NCBI GenBank assembly: GCA_048939245.1
Contig: JBHLPR010000029.1
Coordinates: forward strand, 1-27,081
DNA from: Promethearchaeota archaeon
GTDB taxonomy: Archaea > Asgardarchaeota > Hermodarchaeia > Hermodarchaeales > Hermodarchaeaceae
Direction: 5' to 3'
DNA: 27,081 nt
This document shows, piece by piece, positions 8,734-17,604 of the stretch. Both the position numbers and the translations under genes were made by a program. A model generated the notes under the pieces. That model ran no database searches, had not been told where the DNA came from, and was given only the letters and a program-made list of their open reading frames with translations. Each line of letters starts with the position of its first letter. The first letter of the stretch is position 1.

Positions 8734-11700
8734 CTACCTATCAACATTTCGTTGGTTTCTCTGCTTTTCTCGCCTTCGACGAATCAAGCGTACTGAAATC
8801 ACAATTAGGATAACGATTACAATAAGTAACAGGAATATGGATGGCAGATTCAACACAATGAGGTTCCAAATATAATAAACAGGGTCAATCGGTATCTCAC
8901 TCGATCTGAATATAGTGATTTCAACACCACTAATTATAATCCCCTCCTCATAGCCTGTAATTACATATGTTCGCTGGAAATTCGAAGCAGTAATGGCTCC
9001 AGGTGTAATAAATTCCAAGGCTGGGTGGTCTCCAAAAACGGATGGGCCTTCAGAATCTGGCGGTCGCGTAATGACAGCTATCCATTCTGTATCGATGTCT
9101 TTTTCGGTGCTCCAATTTAAAGATAAACGAGGAATTTCCCTGAATAACGGAATATCAACTTCTCCAGTGTTATGGAATAAAGTACCAATATAGAGAATCT
9201 CATAATTCTCGACTCCAATGTTGTTATAAGGATTCGCATCCTCTGGGTGATTTATTGTTACGCGGATGCATACATCCATTTCTTCGGTTATATGGAAGGG
9301 TGCAAGGAACGTTGTAATGCCATTTCCTGGGACGTTAAATGGTCCTGATTCTGCTATTTTGGTCCATTCTTTCTGCCCAATTCCCCACCCGCTCCATTCA
9401 AACAGCACAGTTGTGCCATGCGCATCTTCCGGAGAAATATTACGCACATCAGCTTCAATCATATAAAGGCTGGGAGGAATCAATTCAAATGTACCCACAG
9501 GAATTTGTGAAAGAATGCTCTTTACACGGATACACGGATTATTCCACCTAGGATTTGCATCGCTTCCGGATCCCGCAGGATTTAGATACCAAGTTGATTC
9601 ATCCCACTGAGAATAAATTACTAAGTCAGGTCGATTATCCCAACGACCGAATGCAACGCTTGCGCACCGATCGGATTGATGTGCAACAATGGTCTCTTGA
9701 GGCGCACTCCCAAAAGGAACAGAGATTACCTCATCAAAAGATGAGGTCTGAATATCAAATATATATAATTCTCTGAAAACTCCGAAATCAATCTTCACCT
9801 CTTCTTGTGGATTGAAATTCTCTCCATGTATAACTATGTCTGTTCCAGTCACTCCATCTTCAGGTGTAGCAGTTATCCACGCTTTTTGTGAGCATACAAC
9901 TATTTCATCCTGAAAAGGGATGAAATCTTTATGAGTCACTGTAATAGTCAGCGCCTCACTTTGCAATGGAACAATAGTACACTCTGCTACTCCCTCTCTA
10001 TTTGTATAAAACACATCATGCACAGTGGTTCCGTGCACACAGACTTTTGCTGATTGAACTCGTTGCTGAGTATCTTGAGAGGTTACTGTCACCCAGAATG
10101 ACTGGGGACCACCAAATCCAATCTGATCATTATAGCTTACCACAAGCTCTTGCGGTTTTTGAGTATAGATAGCTAATTCGGGGTCTCCAAAGAGATGATA
10201 CATTTCAAAGGTCAATTGCGAAAGGATTGCCTCTTGTGTAAAGGCGTTGAAACACATCATTTTGCCAAACCACATCATCTGGCCAAGGGTCAACCGCTCG
10301 CCCGCAGAATATTCTTCGTCAAAGCCATCCCATAATGCATCAATCATACCCGTAAGAAAGAATTTGTTTGATCGTAATTCAGATAACCGCGTTGCACCAA
10401 TCGCGGCAATTGCCCCTTTATTGTTGCCTAATCGAGTGATCTCTTCACAGAATGCATCAACATTTGGGTTAAACCCTTCTTCGTAAAAGCCTGAATATGG
10501 TTGTGTTGTTGATTCATTATCAGTTTCTCCATCAAACCATCCTGTATTGCACGCTAAGCTCAAGACAAGGGGCCATTCATGATACCCTACCATAACATCA
10601 ACAAAATCCTCTGTATAAAAAGCTGGGTCCCACCACCCGTCAAATTCTGGTGAAGTTCCATAAAAGCTATAATAATTTTGTGCATTCCCATGGCCGTAAT
10701 AATAAACGAGGGTATTTCCCGCAGCTATCTTCGTCTTCACTTCGTCAACAGCAGTTTCTGTGAAAGTATTCTTCGCAATATCTAAACTGGTTAGATATTC
10801 ATTGATATAGTTCATCGTATCAAAATGGCTGAAGTCATTACCAGCGAGTGATGTTATTGTCCGGTAAAAGTTAGGATCAGTTGGTGGGGATTTTTCGTAA
10901 TCAATGATCTTGTTCTTCATTGTTAAAACATCGGAGATCGAGTCGACAGATAGACGACCATAATGGATATCGGGGACATAATCAGGGCCATCAACGGTGA
11001 AGTAAGGTAAGTCCGTCCCGATGCCTGCTAAATGCATTTCATGCCACATCCCATAATGTGGAGGGATGTGATCGGAATCTCCCACAAATAGCACATAAGA
11101 TGGAGCAGGATTCCAATTATCATAAGCGAATTTAATATAGTCCGTCAGGTCGTCAACCTTTTCTTGGTAAGTATCACTCCCTGGCTTGAATATTTCTTCA
11201 ACAGTAGTGATTTTTGTAAGGTACCCTTTCTGTTGCTTCCAATCAGCTAGCTCCTGAACAGCATTCTTGAATTCGTCGGTCGTAATAATGAGATAGTCTG
11301 CAGCTTCTACCGCTTGTGCGGGTTCCGATTTTCGTAGCGGCATTGGAACTGAAGGGAAGGAGATACTCTGATAATTCAATACAGTGTGCTCCAATAATGT
11401 CTCAAAGGCTGGGGATACAAGTCTTGTATCTACTGGAGCAATTGGAGTATTCTGAAAATTTAGACCAATTCGTATTTCTGAAAATATTTTGCAACTATTA
11501 GTCAGACCATTGAATTGAACGGGTAGGATATTAAGAGCTACCACACGATGTCCTCGAATAATGATTGGATTATTGTGTTGTCCCCCTGAAAGATACGCTA
11601 CTCTTGTAGGAAACCATAAACTCGAACCAGGAAAATAGGTTGTGAGGTTTTGTTGGAACGATGGGGGATTAAAATCAGGATGATCAAAATGTGGTCCCTG

Positions 11701-12234
11701 ATGTGGTCTAACAACTGTGTTGTACTGAATATGTTCCTCGTAATTGATTGAGGTGATCTGGATGTTGGTTCCGTATGGGACCTGAATTAGACGGGTGATG
11801 ACGGGCACTTCAGGATTTCCTATTTCTGTTAAAAATCCACTAAATGGGATTTGTAATTCATCAAAGGGGAGCGGGGGTTTCCCCACAAAGACAGGAAAAT
11901 CCCATACTCCGGGAATAATGGTTTTTACTTGCAGTTGTGCTGGTTGCGCTACTGTAACATATGATTGGGGAGGAGAATCTGAAGGATATCCGCCAATGAG
12001 GGGAATCCATGTGCTTCCATTGGGTAATTTCCTGAATAGGCTATCCTTAGTTTCAGCTAGCTTGACTTCAGTGATATTTGGTTGGGCCGTGTCAAAGTAC
12101 CTCTGAGAGAATAGTTGAGGGATTTGGATACGGAGACCTGCTGGTGATAGAACCATCGCGATTATAATTATTAAAACGAAGGCAATTGCTTTTCTTTCCT
12201 TATTCCCGATCAACAGAAACCCTTCATTCTTCAT
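8734..12234 (-). CDS. C25 (gingipain-like) cysteine peptidase with propeptide, Ig-like domains and C-terminal membrane anchor
   Basis: Signal/anchor helix; propeptide 'IGNPEVPVITRLIQVP'; C25 core 'DYLIIT..F...LADWKQQKG', 'YVLFVGD', 'PDIHYGRL'; catalytic His (YYGHG) and Cys (SLACNTGWFD); 'YHLFGDPEL'; C-terminal TM followed by RRRR. Confidence 0.92.
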   Translation of the reverse strand: MKNEGFLLIGNKERKAIAFVLIIIIAMVLSPAGLRIQIPQLFSQRYFDTAQPNITEVKLAETKDSLFRKLPNGSTWIPLIGGYPSDSPPQSYVTVAQPAQLQVKTIIPGVWDFPVFVGKPPLPFDELQIPFSGFLTEIGNPEVPVITRLIQVPYGTNIQITSINYEEHIQYNTVVRPHQGPHFDHPDFNPPSFQQNLTTYFPGSSLWFPTRVAYLSGGQHNNPIIIRGHRVVALNILPVQFNGLTNSCKIFSEIRIGLNFQNTPIAPVDTRLVSPAFETLLEHTVLNYQSISFPSVPMPLRKSEPAQAVEAADYLIITTDEFKNAVQELADWKQQKGYLTKITTVEEIFKPGSDTYQEKVDDLTDYIKFAYDNWNPAPSYVLFVGDSDHIPPHYGMWHEMHLAGIGTDLPYFTVDGPDYVPDIHYGRLSVDSISDVLTMKNKIIDYEKSPPTDPNFYRTITSLAGNDFSHFDTMNYINEYLTSLDIAKNTFTETAVDEVKTKIAAGNTLVYYYGHGNAQNYYSFYGTSPEFDGWWDPAFYTEDFVDVMVGYHEWPLVLSLACNTGWFDGETDNESTTQPYSGFYEEGFNPNVDAFCEEITRLGNNKGAIAAIGATRLSELRSNKFFLTGMIDALWDGFDEEYSAGERLTLGQMMWFGKMMCFNAFTQEAILSQLTFEMYHLFGDPELAIYTQKPQELVVSYNDQIGFGGPQSFWVTVTSQDTQQRVQSAKVCVHGTTVHDVFYTNREGVAECTIVPLQSEALTITVTHKDFIPFQDEIVVCSQKAWITATPEDGVTGTDIVIHGENFNPQEEVKIDFGVFRELYIFDIQTSSFDEVISVPFGSAPQETIVAHQSDRCASVAFGRWDNRPDLVIYSQWDESTWYLNPAGSGSDANPRWNNPCIRVKSILSQIPVGTFELIPPSLYMIEADVRNISPEDAHGTTVLFEWSGWGIGQKEWTKIAESGPFNVPGNGITTFLAPFHITEEMDVCIRVTINHPEDANPYNNIGVENYEILYIGTLFHNTGEVDIPLFREIPRLSLNWSTEKDIDTEWIAVITRPPDSEGPSVFGDHPALEFITPGAITASNFQRTYVITGYEEGIIISGVEITIFRSSEIPIDPVYYIWNLIVLNLPSIFLLLIVIVILIVISVRLIRRRREKQRNQRNVDR

Positions 12235-12507: not shown

Positions 12508-12625
12508 GGTTATCCCTCCTGTGCTTCTAATACTCAAATTCCTTAAAAGGTTTAGCTTTAGCGGGCTCCTAAATATTTAGTTGAGCGAGGTGCAAATCTT
12601 CGTGAAAACTATTGTCTTTTAACGA

Positions 12626-12711
12626 TTTTTTGCATCTTCTGATGCAAAAAACCTCTTTTTCCTTATCACTTCTCGGTATTTTTGTACCTTTCAGCTCCCA
12701 TCGAATAATAT
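12626..12711 (+). promoter_or_regulatory. conserved promoter unit 1: palindrome TTTGCA-N8-TGCAAA plus atttttgYac-N6-gctcccatcgaataatat
   Basis: 11-bp inverted repeat 12626-12636/12641-12651; the 18-mer gctcccatcgaataatat at 12694-12711 is identical to 13217-13234; same spacing in both units. Confidence 0.75.
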
Positions 12712-12788
12712 CAAACAGACGCATATTCTCAATTGTGCTGGGATTCTTACCCAGGATTCCGGTAACACCACAATTGGAGGTATTTGAG

Positions 12789-12929
12789 ATGGTCGAATCC
12801 AAACATAAGCGCAAGAATTTAGCAGAAATGTCGGCAACTGAGCGTGCTGTGGCTGGCTGCCGAAACCCTCATCCAGTAGCTAAGCCACGAACCCGCTATG
12901 CAGTTATGCTGGTTCTCAGCCGACACTAG
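12789..12929 (+). CDS. 46-aa basic peptide, paralog 1 (ERAVxGxxNP family)
   Basis: MVESKHKRKNLAEMSATERAVAGCRNPHPVAKPRTRYAVMLVLSRH*; GGAGGT RBS 12776-12781; homologous to 13288-13410. It is the C-terminal part of track ORF 12612..12929. Confidence 0.8.
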   Translation: MVESKHKRKNLAEMSATERAVAGCRNPHPVAKPRTRYAVMLVLSRH

Positions 12930-12987
12930 ACTGTGAGGAATCCCCATGGTGAAGAAACGATCCCCAGAACCTCCTTGCAGTCTTATC

Positions 12988-13112
12988 AATCGGGCCTACA
13001 CACCCTCCATTCGTGCTCCTTTCCGTTGTTGGGGGATTGGCGTAATAGCAATCCGGCAACGGGTGGACTCACCCTTTGGCTTTTCAACTATGGAGCTTTT
13101 GTGGGCCCGGTT
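12988..13112 (+). ncRNA. putative ~125-nt structured RNA element 1 (3' of peptide 1)
   Basis: 13-bp closing helix aatcgggcctaca/tgtgggcccggtt (2 G-U); nested ctccat/atggag, ccgttgtt/ggcaacgg and ggattg/caatcc; T8 tract at 13147-13154. Strand inferred from G-U pairs and gene orientation. Confidence 0.55.
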
Positions 13113-13151
13113 TATCCACTTCTAAAATCTTGTGATGGTGAAATTCTTTTT

Positions 13152-13234
13152 TTTGCACCCCTCAGTGCAAATGTTGGCAGACTCTCCCTCTTTTTGTTAG
13201 ATTTTTGCACTTATTGGCTCCCATCGAATAATAT
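13152..13234 (+). promoter_or_regulatory. conserved promoter unit 2
   Basis: tttgca-cccctcag-tgcaaa 13152-13171; atttttgcac 13201-13210; gctcccatcgaataatat 13217-13234; spacing identical to unit 1. Confidence 0.75.
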
Positions 13235-13287
13235 GCAATTCTAGAGTTAGGTATCATTGTCTCGCATCAGCGGGACGGTGAAATGAA

Positions 13288-13410
13288 ATGGCTCAGAAAA
13301 AGAAAATTGGTAAAATGGCTGTTGCCGAACGTGCTGTGACCGGCGCTAAAAACCCCAAGGGCACCCCCCGAGATCGAATTAACTTTGCTATCGTAACTTC
13401 ACGACGCTAA
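13288..13410 (+). CDS. 40-aa basic peptide, paralog 2 (not in ORF track)
   Basis: MAQKKKIGKMAVAERAVTGAKNPKGTPRDRINFAIVTSRR*; GGTGA RBS 13277-13281; aligns without gaps to peptide 1 over about 32 residues. Confidence 0.8.
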   Translation: MAQKKKIGKMAVAERAVTGAKNPKGTPRDRINFAIVTSRR

Positions 13411-13467
13411 TCATGCTTACTAGGGATCGACACTCAAACTGTGACACGGATTATAACCACTGACTGA

Positions 13468-13600
13468 AGCCGGGTCTTCATGGTAACCGGATAAAACTCC
13501 GAATCCGTTGTCCAAAAAGGTCCATTGCCACCCACACAAACGGACCGGGAAGTGCCGAAATGGAGGGGAAGAAAATCCTGAAGACCCGGCTGATTTTTTT
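13468..13600 (+). ncRNA. putative ~124-nt structured RNA element 2 plus T-tract
   Basis: Perfect 13-bp inverted repeat agccgggtcttca 13468-13480 / tgaagacccggct 13579-13591; inner ctcc/ggag and tccgtt/aacgga; T7 at 13594-13600. Confidence 0.55.
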
Positions 13601-13811
13601 CGATGAACCTTGAGCGACAAAAATGCAAATTATCTCCCAAAATGATTGCAAAGGAATTCATATGACGTATATCTTACTGAATTCGTGACAATGGAAAGAA
13701 TGCATTCACAACTCCTTGTTTTGTTTGTCTAATAATATGCTCTAAAAAACGACATAACCTCCTAAGAGTAACTTATTTGACTCAAAACTCAATACACTAG
13801 CAGGCTTTACA

Positions 13812-15392: not shown

Positions 15393-16370
15393 TCAGGCAT
15401 CAAGTTGTTTGAAGAGCTGTTCAAAGTAATCATCAATTGGACTCCGAAACACCCTTGTCGGATACCCATAGATAGCATTTGCAGAAACAGCCTCAGATGT
15501 CTGTCGAATCGTTTCGATAATCTCACTCGCCTCGCGCATATGCTCAACCACAAAAACACAAAAAATCTCCGGCTCAAACGCCGACGCATATGCATACCAA
15601 AATTTCACCGGATAATAGTCCTGTAAAATCTTCACAATTTTGGATCTTTGTTGTGTTCCTTCTTCATGTCGAATAATGATTACAAAAGCCGTATATCCTC
15701 CCGCATTCAAATTCCATTGTACAGTAATTTTAAAACAGACCTCACTAGGTCGACTCCCACCCCTCGGCTCCCAATTAATATAGATATTTGGTTCCGATCC
15801 ATTCTCACCAATTAACTCGCCGATTATCTTTCGGATCCGACGAGGCGTTAACCGCGTCTGTTTAGACATATCACTAATCGACATTCGTGCATCCTGATGT
15901 AAACAGCGAAGAACCTTCAGATCTGATTTAGATAACTCACAACGTTTACCCGGCTCAGTGAGTATCGTATGGAATTCCACTCCTTCTACTCCTGGAATCT
16001 GCCGTAAAAACGTACCAATCTCTTGAAGTCCCATAGCCCCGGCATAACTTCCGAAACAAAGAATACTCCCATCGGTCAAAATGCTCGCTGAACCTACCAA
16101 TCTATGTGCTCCTAAGGAGTCTAGGAATGCATCGGATGGAATCGGATCCTGGGTTCGGATGATTGCTACCCAATCTTCCATACCTAACATTGCATTTGTC
16201 GGTAGTAACTGCCCCCCTCGAATGATTCCATCACTATTCAGCTTCTGAATCCGCTTCTTAATCGCATTCACCGAAAGGCTGAGTTTCTTCGCAATCGCCT
16301 GATATGAAGCTCGGTAATTAACCGATAACTCGAAGATTATGTTCTTGTCTACGATATCCATCGACACCAC
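15393..16370 (-). CDS. Lrp/AsnC-family regulator with two tandem HTH-effector modules
   Basis: 'MDIVDKNIIFELSVNYRASYQAIAKKLSLSVNAIKKRIQKL' and a second HTH 'DLKVLRCLHQDARMSISDMSKQTRLTPRRIRK'. Confidence 0.9.
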   Translation of the reverse strand: MVSMDIVDKNIIFELSVNYRASYQAIAKKLSLSVNAIKKRIQKLNSDGIIRGGQLLPTNAMLGMEDWVAIIRTQDPIPSDAFLDSLGAHRLVGSASILTDGSILCFGSYAGAMGLQEIGTFLRQIPGVEGVEFHTILTEPGKRCELSKSDLKVLRCLHQDARMSISDMSKQTRLTPRRIRKIIGELIGENGSEPNIYINWEPRGGSRPSEVCFKITVQWNLNAGGYTAFVIIIRHEEGTQQRSKIVKILQDYYPVKFWYAYASAFEPEIFCVFVVEHMREASEIIETIRQTSEAVSANAIYGYPTRVFRSPIDDYFEQLFKQLDA

Positions 16371-16635: not shown

Positions 16636-17604
16636 TTGGATGAGATTGATAAAGGGATTCTACTTGAATTAGCTGATAACTGTAGAATCTCTTATCAAGA
16701 TCTGGCTACCCAACTCGGCATTACCGTGAACGCTATAAAAAAACGATTTGACAAGTTAGTTGAAAGCGGAGTTATCTGCGGGTTCACTATTTATCCCAGC
16801 CTTGCTATGTTAGAAGCAGATAATTTGGTTGCCCGGATTTATCCAGAAATCCAACCACAATCTGATGAGCTTCTTGATTTAATTGGGTCCAATAGGATGG
16901 TTAGAACTGGCAGTTATCTCGCCGATGGCTCAGTTCTTTGCTTTGCCGATTATCAGGGGAGTATGGGTTTGGCAGAACTTGGAAAATTCCTCAGAGGAAT
17001 ATCTAGTGTTAAGCAGGTTGACCTCCATACAGTAATCTGTGAGAAGGGGAGTAGATGTGAGCTCACGGCTGATGATCTAAGAGTTCTACGTGAACTTAAA
17101 ACCGATGCCCGAATGCCTCTCTCTGAAATTGCTCGAAACACAGGCTTAACTCCCCGACGAGTGCGAAAGAATCTTCTGAAACTTTTCGGTGAGAGTGGCT
17201 CCGGATGGGAAATTGCAGTTGATGAGCAATCGTTTGGTGATCAGCGCACCCGTCAAGCCTGTATGTATTCACGAGTCCTATGGAATCTAAATGCAGGAGG
17301 CGCCACATTTTTCATAATCAGGATATTTTGGAAAGAGGACACAGCAAGCCCACACGAAGTCGTGGCCTGGCTACGTAAACATTTCCCACTTGAATTTTGG
17401 TATGCATATGTTTCAGCTACAGCTCCTGAAATCTATACCGTGTTCATGGTAGAACATCTACGAGATTCCAAACCTATTGCCAGAAAGGTTGGACACCAAC
17501 CTTTTACAGAATCCATTGAGCCGATTTTCGGCTATCCCAGCAAACGCTTCAAAAATATACGCGACTATTTCCTCGAAGAAAAATTTGCCACATTGGATAA
17601 GTAA
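16636..17604 (+). CDS. Lrp/AsnC-family regulator with two tandem HTH-effector modules (paralog of 15393-16370)
   Basis: 'MDEIDKGILLELADNCRISYQDLATQLGITVNAIKKRFDKL' and 'DLRVLRELKTDARMPLSEIARNTGLTPRRVRK'; shares WNLNAGG, FWYAY, VEH and GYP with its neighbour. Confidence 0.9.
   Translation: MDEIDKGILLELADNCRISYQDLATQLGITVNAIKKRFDKLVESGVICGFTIYPSLAMLEADNLVARIYPEIQPQSDELLDLIGSNRMVRTGSYLADGSVLCFADYQGSMGLAELGKFLRGISSVKQVDLHTVICEKGSRCELTADDLRVLRELKTDARMPLSEIARNTGLTPRRVRKNLLKLFGESGSGWEIAVDEQSFGDQRTRQACMYSRVLWNLNAGGATFFIIRIFWKEDTASPHEVVAWLRKHFPLEFWYAYVSATAPEIYTVFMVEHLRDSKPIARKVGHQPFTESIEPIFGYPSKRFKNIRDYFLEEKFATLDK

Follow-up and report, generated by a model that had tools for sequence, protein, structure and literature searches.

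Bacteria possess small RNAs that are embedded in, or derived from, the 3' untranslated regions of mRNAs, such as CpxQ, SroC and DapZ, and type I toxin mRNAs, such as hok and aapA. In archaea, transcription termination needs no hairpin. The Asgard archaea are the closest prokaryotic relatives of eukaryotes, and to our knowledge almost nothing is known on regulatory RNA or microproteins in this group.

The locus described here touches on each of these subjects. It lies in the window, by which is meant the whole stretch of DNA analysed (27,081 nucleotides of an Asgard metagenome-assembled genome, G000), and contains two adjacent genes for basic microproteins, each followed by a helix-closed element (E1 and E2). 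On balance, the comparison of related sequences makes it probable that E1 and E2 are conserved folded 3'-terminal mRNA domains of the two genes, which would define and protect the transcript end and offer a recognition surface.

Organisation of the two transcription units

Two transcription units are arranged in tandem on the + strand, each composed of a 12-mer box, a short leader with a Shine-Dalgarno (SD) sequence, a small ORF, a spacer, a helix-closed element and a T-run. The features are the following.

12626..12651, no strand: palindrome TTTGCATC-N4-GATGCAAA, candidate operator 5' of unit 1 (by reading; an 11-bp hairpin in the hairpin scan)
12700..12711, + strand: promoter-like box ATCGAATAATAT of unit 1 (the same 12-mer precedes both units)
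12776-12781, + strand: SD sequence GGAGGT of ORF1
12789..12929, + strand: ORF1 (P0001), 46-residue basic microprotein, stop codon TAG (conserved at the protein level; family profile E 3e-21)
12930..12987, + strand: spacer 1, from the ORF1 stop to E1 (56-60 nt in B-type orthologues)
12988..13112, + strand: E1, 125-nt helix-closed RNA domain (folding, covariation in six orthologues, G-U pairs)
13147..13154, + strand: T-run 3' of E1, likely end of transcript 1 (overlaps the second palindrome)
13152..13171, no strand: palindrome TTTGCAC-N6-GTGCAAA, candidate operator 5' of unit 2 (kept in the orthologous loci L008, L009, L012 and L013)
13223..13234, + strand: promoter-like box ATCGAATAATAT of unit 2 (near-invariant in orthologues; pairwise identity of the box region 0.87)
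13259..13276, + strand: 5'UTR hairpin of unit 2 (abuts the SD sequence; stem kept despite sequence change)
13277-13281, + strand: SD sequence GGTGA of ORF2
13288..13410, + strand: ORF2 (P0002), 40-residue basic microprotein, stop codon TAA (conservation by codon position)
13411..13467, + strand: spacer 2, from the ORF2 stop to E2 (57-65 nt in ten orthologues; without conserved structure or promoter)
13468..13591, + strand: E2, 124-nt helix-closed RNA domain (covariation, near-invariant core)
13594..13600, + strand: T7 run 3' of E2, likely end of transcript 2 (T-rich run in ten of ten orthologues)

The spacer between stop codon and element is about 58 nt in both units, and the T-run is found 3 nt after E2 and approximately 35 nt after E1. 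Box ATCGAATAATAT may play the role of an archaeal BRE/TATA element, and termination at the T-run after E1 is likely in the light of known archaeal oligo-T termination. The palindromes at 12626-12651 and 13152-13171 sit about 50-75 nt 5' of the identical promoter boxes and look like operators of one transcription factor, the second being conserved in orthologous loci.

The whole layout of unit 2, from promoter box through 5'UTR hairpin, SD sequence, ORF, spacer and E2 to the T-run, is kept in ten orthologous loci, among which the T-rich run is weakest in the second copy of genome G014. The stem of the 5'UTR hairpin varies among orthologues between GUCUCGC/GCGGGAC and GUCCUG/CAGGAC. Eight further genomes of the genus have the tandem A/B pair (ORF2 and E2 being of the A-type, ORF1 and E1 of the B-type) in synteny. 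Neighbouring genes include a divergently transcribed 1166-residue C25 (gingipain-type) peptidase with propeptide (window 8734-12234, - strand) and two proteins of about 320 residues (15393-16370, - strand, and 16636-17604, + strand), each with two AsnC-type HTH domains and a weak match to the NirD/L-like siroheme-decarboxylase HTH.

Helices and motifs of E1 and E2

A sequence-only reading of this DNA had pointed to two elements with compensatory changes in the closing helix; on re-reading both, its description of the arms, of the three paired positions that differ and of the motifs in common proved exact. E1 has the 5' arm CGGGCCUACA and the 3' arm UGUGGGCCCG, E2 the arms CGGGUCUUCA and UGAAGACCCG, and the paired differences are C-G to U-A, U-G to U-A and A-U to U-A. 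Together with flanking bases the closing helix, P1, comprises 13 bp (E1 12988-13000/13100-13112; E2 13468-13480/13579-13591). In both elements CUCC-N2/3-UCCGUUGU lies 34-36 nt into the element, and both contain AACGG and AUGGAG. E1 has a central hairpin (13022-13063) with UCCGUUGU at 13022-13029, and in the fold of this sequence CUCCAU (13005-13010) pairs with AUGGAG (13090-13095). The near-invariant core of E2 is composed of UCCGUUGU (13504-13511), GGUCCAUUGCCACCCA (13519-13534), GGACCGGGAAGUGCC (13542-13556) and AUGGAG (13560-13565).

On the + strand both elements fold better than dinucleotide-shuffled controls (z -3.96 for E1 and -2.74 for E2), a control that the sequence-only reading had itself proposed. 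Since helices of at least 12 bp closing 60-170 nt, with G-U allowed, are common by chance (25 on the + strand of the window vs 10-16 in shuffles) and the global alignment of E1 with E2 is not significant (z 1.5), the evidence from the single sequence is weak and the comparison of orthologues decides. The 9-mer UCCGUUGUC occurs 15 times in the genome vs about 16 expected, as estimated from base composition; three of the 15 occurrences fall in 3' elements of the four family genes. Judged by their sequences, E1 and E2 are not two copies of one RNA: common to them are the closing helix, UCCGUUGU and CUCC/GGAG only, and their interiors fold differently. A G-U-tolerant pairing of 15 bp is possible between the 3' end of ORF1 (12903-12917) and the E1 central hairpin (13032-13046), with duplex energies not above those of shuffles.

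Conservation of E2 and E1 in orthologous loci

In an alignment of 12 E2 sequences P1 reaches 16 pairs, five of which have changed on both sides, a count that overstates independence because the class comprises only 19 genomes, all of them related. In the same alignment 93% of P1 cells are paired, vs 26-54% when the 3' partner is slid. One-sided changes in P1 are mostly to G-U; as these would be C-A mismatches on the other strand, they fit an RNA read from the + strand. The interior blocks UCCGUUGUCC, GGUCCAUUGCCACCCA, GGACCGGGAAGUGCC and AAAUGGAGGGGAAGG are near-invariant, so that covariation can neither support nor refute the pairing of the interior helices. In the alignment of six E1 orthologues, P1 and the central hairpin (CYGUUGYUGG.../...CAGCAACRG) covary, with many G-U pairs. 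E1 is freer in sequence than E2 and is reduced to a 77-nt hairpin in one genome; its indels of 1 and 2 nt exclude coding. Compensatory changes of the kind first noticed between the two copies are real in both larger alignments, and the G-U changes bear out the proposed + strand RNA structure.

Pairwise identities were calculated over nine orthologous units. ORF2 shows an identity of 0.92 at codon positions 1 and 2 and of 0.56 at position 3, a difference which indicates that ORF2 is a coding sequence under purifying selection. The E2 core (0.88) is conserved beyond both the third codon positions of the ORF and the 3' flank of E2 (0.31); the values for E2 P1 and for the spacer are 0.87 and 0.64, respectively. 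A covariance model of E2, a search that had been suggested with the original observation, detects the element in 12 of the 15 genomes of the genus (this one counted) and in none elsewhere, with one copy per genome except for two in G014. In G002 and G005, E2 is found with its core intact directly behind a B-like unit, without an A-type ORF and with a variant closing helix that has two mismatched pairs (L023:1138-1259 in G002, L021:355-476 in G005). The near letter-for-letter conservation and the retention where the ORF was lost suggest that the RNA part of E2 most likely has a function of its own.

Such a function could be that of a trans-acting small RNA derived from the 3'UTR, with the domains of about 125 nt being cut out or remaining as stable fragments, the ORF being a passenger, and the RNA acting by base pairing elsewhere or by sequestering a protein. 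This explanation, which we regard as possible but rather unlikely, would account for an E2 core conserved far above synonymous sites and kept invariant where ORF2 is absent. The closing helix with a U-tract is also the usual 3' end of stable small RNAs, and the unpaired C-rich stretches, CCACCC in E2 and CCUCC in E1, by reading resemble anti-SD seeds. However, the search for a target or partner gave no complementarity beyond chance to own 5'UTRs (z -0.6 to +0.9), to ORF 3' ends (z -1.9 to +0.7) or to rRNA. Moreover, sequence conservation is far lower in E1 and in the interiors of other subfamilies, a processing signal was not recognised, and a purely trans-acting RNA would not require each P1-type element to be strictly linked to a family ORF, as is described below.

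The G002 and G005 loci, in which E2 is directly preceded by a T-run and an A/T-rich stretch in place of an ORF, would also be compatible with free-standing genes of small stable RNAs that have their own promoters and are merely located beside small ORFs. Their size, the end-closing helix and the U-tail point the same way, and the sequence-only reading had been reminded of small stable RNAs by the first two. We consider this very improbable. By a reading of the spacing, the A/T-rich stretch in G002 and G005 is some 12 nt 5' of P1, a distance too short for an archaeal TATA box from which the RNA would start at P1, and all 17 P1-type repeats are linked to an ORF. In addition, no conserved promoter-like A/T-rich box was found in the spacers of the ten orthologues, whereas the box 5' of the ORF is near-invariant, which makes co-transcription of ORF and element the simplest reading. 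Of the earlier comparison with stable RNAs, the conserved RNA structure stands and the free-standing gene is not supported, the elements probably being the 3' part of ORF transcription units.

The microprotein family and its 3' tails

ORF1 and ORF2 are paralogues, with a K-rich N-terminus, the motif ERAVxGxxNP and a C-terminal SR[RH]. The motif of the whole family is ERAxxGxxNP...SR[RH], in which ER..G..NP is invariant, and the proteins are very basic. Proteins almost identical to those of G000 bear database names that put it with the Promethearchaeota/Thorarchaeota MAGs. The ORF profile matched in 18 of the 19 class genomes, which are all members of one family, with one to six copies each, and in none of the phylum's 381 other genomes; a search of 1.8 billion representative proteins with it yielded only about 17 small clusters. 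No relatives of the microprotein were found in Pfam, NCBIfam, PADLOC, PDB or the ESM Atlas, nor in viral contigs, and a full-text search gave no literature on the microprotein/tail module.

From the 19 class genomes about 65 family genes were collected. In at least eight paralogue subfamilies the gene is followed by a 3' domain of 99-140 nt, closed by CGGGUCUUC...GAAGACCCG, and then by a T-rich tail. The closing helix across subfamilies reads (C)GGGUCUUC...GAAGACCC(G), and the interiors are unrelated between subfamilies. In most subfamilies the domain lies at +50 to +65 nt, counted from the stop codon; in one of those belonging to the second genus the distance is about +95, and in the C-type it is +168 to +186. 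The C-type element, at G000:C79:8900-9023 (L028) and nine orthologous loci, is about 180 nt away from the stop. It is preceded by a conserved AUGAUGUCAC motif, from whose ATGATG a frame is open in all ten loci carrying it; in the spacer of L028 there is a short SD-led ORF of 27-31 codons, depending on the start codon. In the D-type and in several second-genus subfamilies the T-run is preceded by other conserved hairpins, without a P1 type.

The exact inverted repeat GGGTCTTC-N75-135-GAAGRCCC occurs in 17 places in the 19 class genomes, and at each of the 17 a family ORF of the same strand lies upstream. Beyond the family, 16 of 381 genomes have it, with no interior in common, which is about chance level, a handful more than the few matches of the reversed control pattern. 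A 15-mer pattern scan of genome and metagenome contigs gave only the two known loci among the matches listed, the rest being due to chance. The ORF and its RNA domain form a single unit of inheritance, and the gene family is limited to one Asgard (Thorarchaeota-type) family.

The joint inheritance through many duplications raises the question of a ribonucleoprotein acting in cis, in which the basic microprotein would bind its own mRNA tail via YCGUUGU and/or P1, with feedback on its own synthesis or a functional particle as the outcome. The very basic proteins with their invariant ER..G..NP motif and the recurrence of the YCGUUGU box in A, B, C and D-type tails can be read in its favour. The proteins of the C- and D-type are, on the other hand, nearly identical and their 3' structures very different, which argues against a simple rule of each protein binding its own tail. 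Several subfamilies lack both P1 and CGUUGU, and E2 persists without its ORF. AlphaFold models the microprotein as a low-confidence three-helix peptide (pLDDT 65) without a known RNA-binding fold, and Pfam and PDB hold no relative of it. Taken together, we hold autoregulation of this type to be unlikely.

Known RNA and DNA classes

The absence of 5S, tRNA, SRP and SECIS features, already remarked from the bare sequence, agrees with searches of Rfam and with ARAGORN and with a direct comparison to 5S rRNA. Rfam 15, whose families cover 5S, SRP, RNase P, SECIS, C/D and H/ACA sRNAs and riboswitches, gave no match anywhere in the window at gathering thresholds. When E was allowed to reach 10, positions 12600-13750 gave three chance-level matches, none of them over E1; one, the Mnt IRES on the - strand over part of E2, scored 10 bits vs a cut-off of 100. 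Neither element matches a family of this covariance-model collection. RF00001 finds the 5S rRNA of this genome at G000:C76:8-126 and one site in 17 of the 19 class genomes, never the E1/E2 locus, and the alignment of 5S rRNA with E2 (z 0.9) and E1 (z -2.1) is at chance level; a divergent 5S rRNA was rejected on these grounds. An archaeal 3'UTR SECIS element was rejected, as ORF1, ORF2 and the listed relatives have no in-frame stop and no SECIS model matched; stop codons vary among family ORFs (TAA, TAG, TGA). ARAGORN detected no tRNA or tmRNA in the window and no tRNA-Sec or tRNA-Pyl in the genome, which is incomplete. In this 2.5-Mb, 88%-complete genome ARAGORN reports about 15 tRNA genes, and 16S and 23S genes are missing, a shortfall probably due to intron-containing tRNAs and unassembled rRNA operons. 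In a relative, the match to the archaeal 16S model (1478 positions) extends over 3.6 kb (L350, G006:C71:619-4212), which means that its 16S gene contains large insertions, either introns or expansion segments.

Guide RNAs of the C/D or H/ACA type were discarded since the alignments show no conserved C/D or ACA boxes. An rRNA guide or mimic is not supported either, the longest complement to 16S/23S of relatives being 7-11 nt, as in shuffles, and the similarity not exceeding that of shuffles. The scan for intrinsic terminators (G+C-rich hairpin, loop of 3-8 nt, T-run) called neither E1 nor E2; P1 and T7 of E2 fit a terminator only with a 'loop' of 98 nt, and the T-run of E1 is about 35 nt downstream. 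A pseudoknot in E2 between the loop CAUUGCC and GGGAAGUG was dropped because variants, in a reading of the alignment, break pairs without compensation. In all A-type loci the ORF2 codons GGC ACC CCC CG (13360-13370), the synonymous sites of which are unusually conserved, are complementary at 9-11 of 11 positions to CGGGAAGUGCC of the E2 core (13545-13556). This could be a translation-sensitive long-range pairing; chance matches in the same sequences score equally, and the complement is absent in G002 and G005.

Conserved inverted repeats around a variable interior, behind tandem small ORFs, superficially recall arrays of cassettes with attC sites, and open frames run through E1 after the ORF1 TAG and through the C-type element. 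It may thus be asked whether the elements act at the DNA level (a MITE, an attC-like site or an inverted-repeat protein-binding site), are unrecognised coding sequence or are due to chance. This we consider largely refuted, with hardly any probability left. The arms CGGGUCUUC/GAAGACCCG by reading lack the RYYYAAC/GTTRRRY cores of attC sites, each ORF has its own promoter box, the loci are syntenic, and no integrase was found among the scanned neighbours. A MITE should be dispersed, yet BLAST of E1 against its own genome finds only itself, each element is syntenic across the genus and single-copy (for E2 with the exception of G014), and the interiors differ. The viral contigs hold no relatives, and one-sided changes to G-U on the + strand speak against a DNA element. 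As to coding, read-through of the ORF1 TAG into a 103-codon frame (12927-13244) across E1 was rejected, since that frame is open only in G000 and G003 and is broken at codons 1-42 in three other orthologues. The open frame of the C-type is probably not coding, because it is not the same frame from genome to genome. Indel lengths are not divisible by three, and the open frames either lack conservation or shift from one genome to another.

Proposed role of the 3' domains

According to the reading of E1 and E2 as folded 3'-terminal mRNA domains, transcription would stop in the U-tract that comes right behind P1. By clamping the domain, P1 would keep it folded and protect a very short mRNA against decay in the 3'-5' direction; P1 and the U-tract most likely both set the 3' end and protect it. 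Along with the conserved sequence of P1, the interior would serve as a surface for a trans factor, either protein or RNA, which may control the fate of the transcript or use the RNA itself. The conservation of the P1 sequence across paralogues, the near-invariant E2 core and the fact that E2 outlives its ORF show that selection goes beyond that on a generic stabilising hairpin. Counting against this reading are the T-run of E1, which is not adjacent to P1, and the subfamilies without a P1 type (the D-type and several of those in the second genus). Our statements on where the transcripts end, how they are processed and how stable they are derive from the sequences.

The same constant and variable parts could also belong to an unknown small-protein/RNA system, in which P1 and YCGUUGU form a scaffold recruiting a common factor, possibly the encoded peptide, and the interior of each paralogue is the effector or specificity part. 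A constant scaffold combined with a variable segment is known from guide and decoy RNAs. We give this proposal a small probability.

Whichever applies, the gene family is specific to its lineage and joins a very small basic protein with a complex 3' RNA domain on which selection is strong, and the closing helix has kept its sequence over many rounds of duplication. Should the tails do no more than terminate and shield short mRNAs, their complexity would be unusual among archaeal 3'-end structures; should they instead bind a factor or work in trans, they would constitute a new class of RNA and possibly also a ribonucleoprotein of a new kind. In either case the module, at about 330 nt, is compact and lends itself easily to in vitro tests.

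Comparison with described systems

With 5S rRNA and other stable RNAs of about 120 nt, E1 and E2 share the length, the end-to-end helix and the U-rich tail, but they match neither RF00001 nor any other Rfam family. They resemble intrinsic and oligo-T terminators in having a G+C-rich helix followed by a T-run (3 nt after E2), with T-rich tails in all subfamilies. In contrast to intrinsic terminators, the 'loop' is a conserved folded sequence of about 100 nt and the sequence of the helix itself is kept across paralogues.

Type I toxin mRNAs such as hok and aapA likewise have very short ORFs on highly structured, tightly controlled small transcripts, and a 5'UTR hairpin beside the SD sequence. 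The microproteins described here are, however, basic instead of hydrophobic, an antisense RNA gene is not apparent, and the long-range helix closes the 3' domain only and not the whole mRNA.

Small RNAs of the CpxQ, SroC and DapZ type are similar in that a structured and conserved mRNA 3' end carries a helix with a U-tract and is conserved above the synonymous sites of the upstream ORF. E1 and E2 differ from them in being archaeal and without sequence relation, about 125 nt long, and built as a clamp of 13-17 bp round a multi-helix interior. They also differ in that tails of the E1/E2 type are tied to one microprotein family through many duplications.
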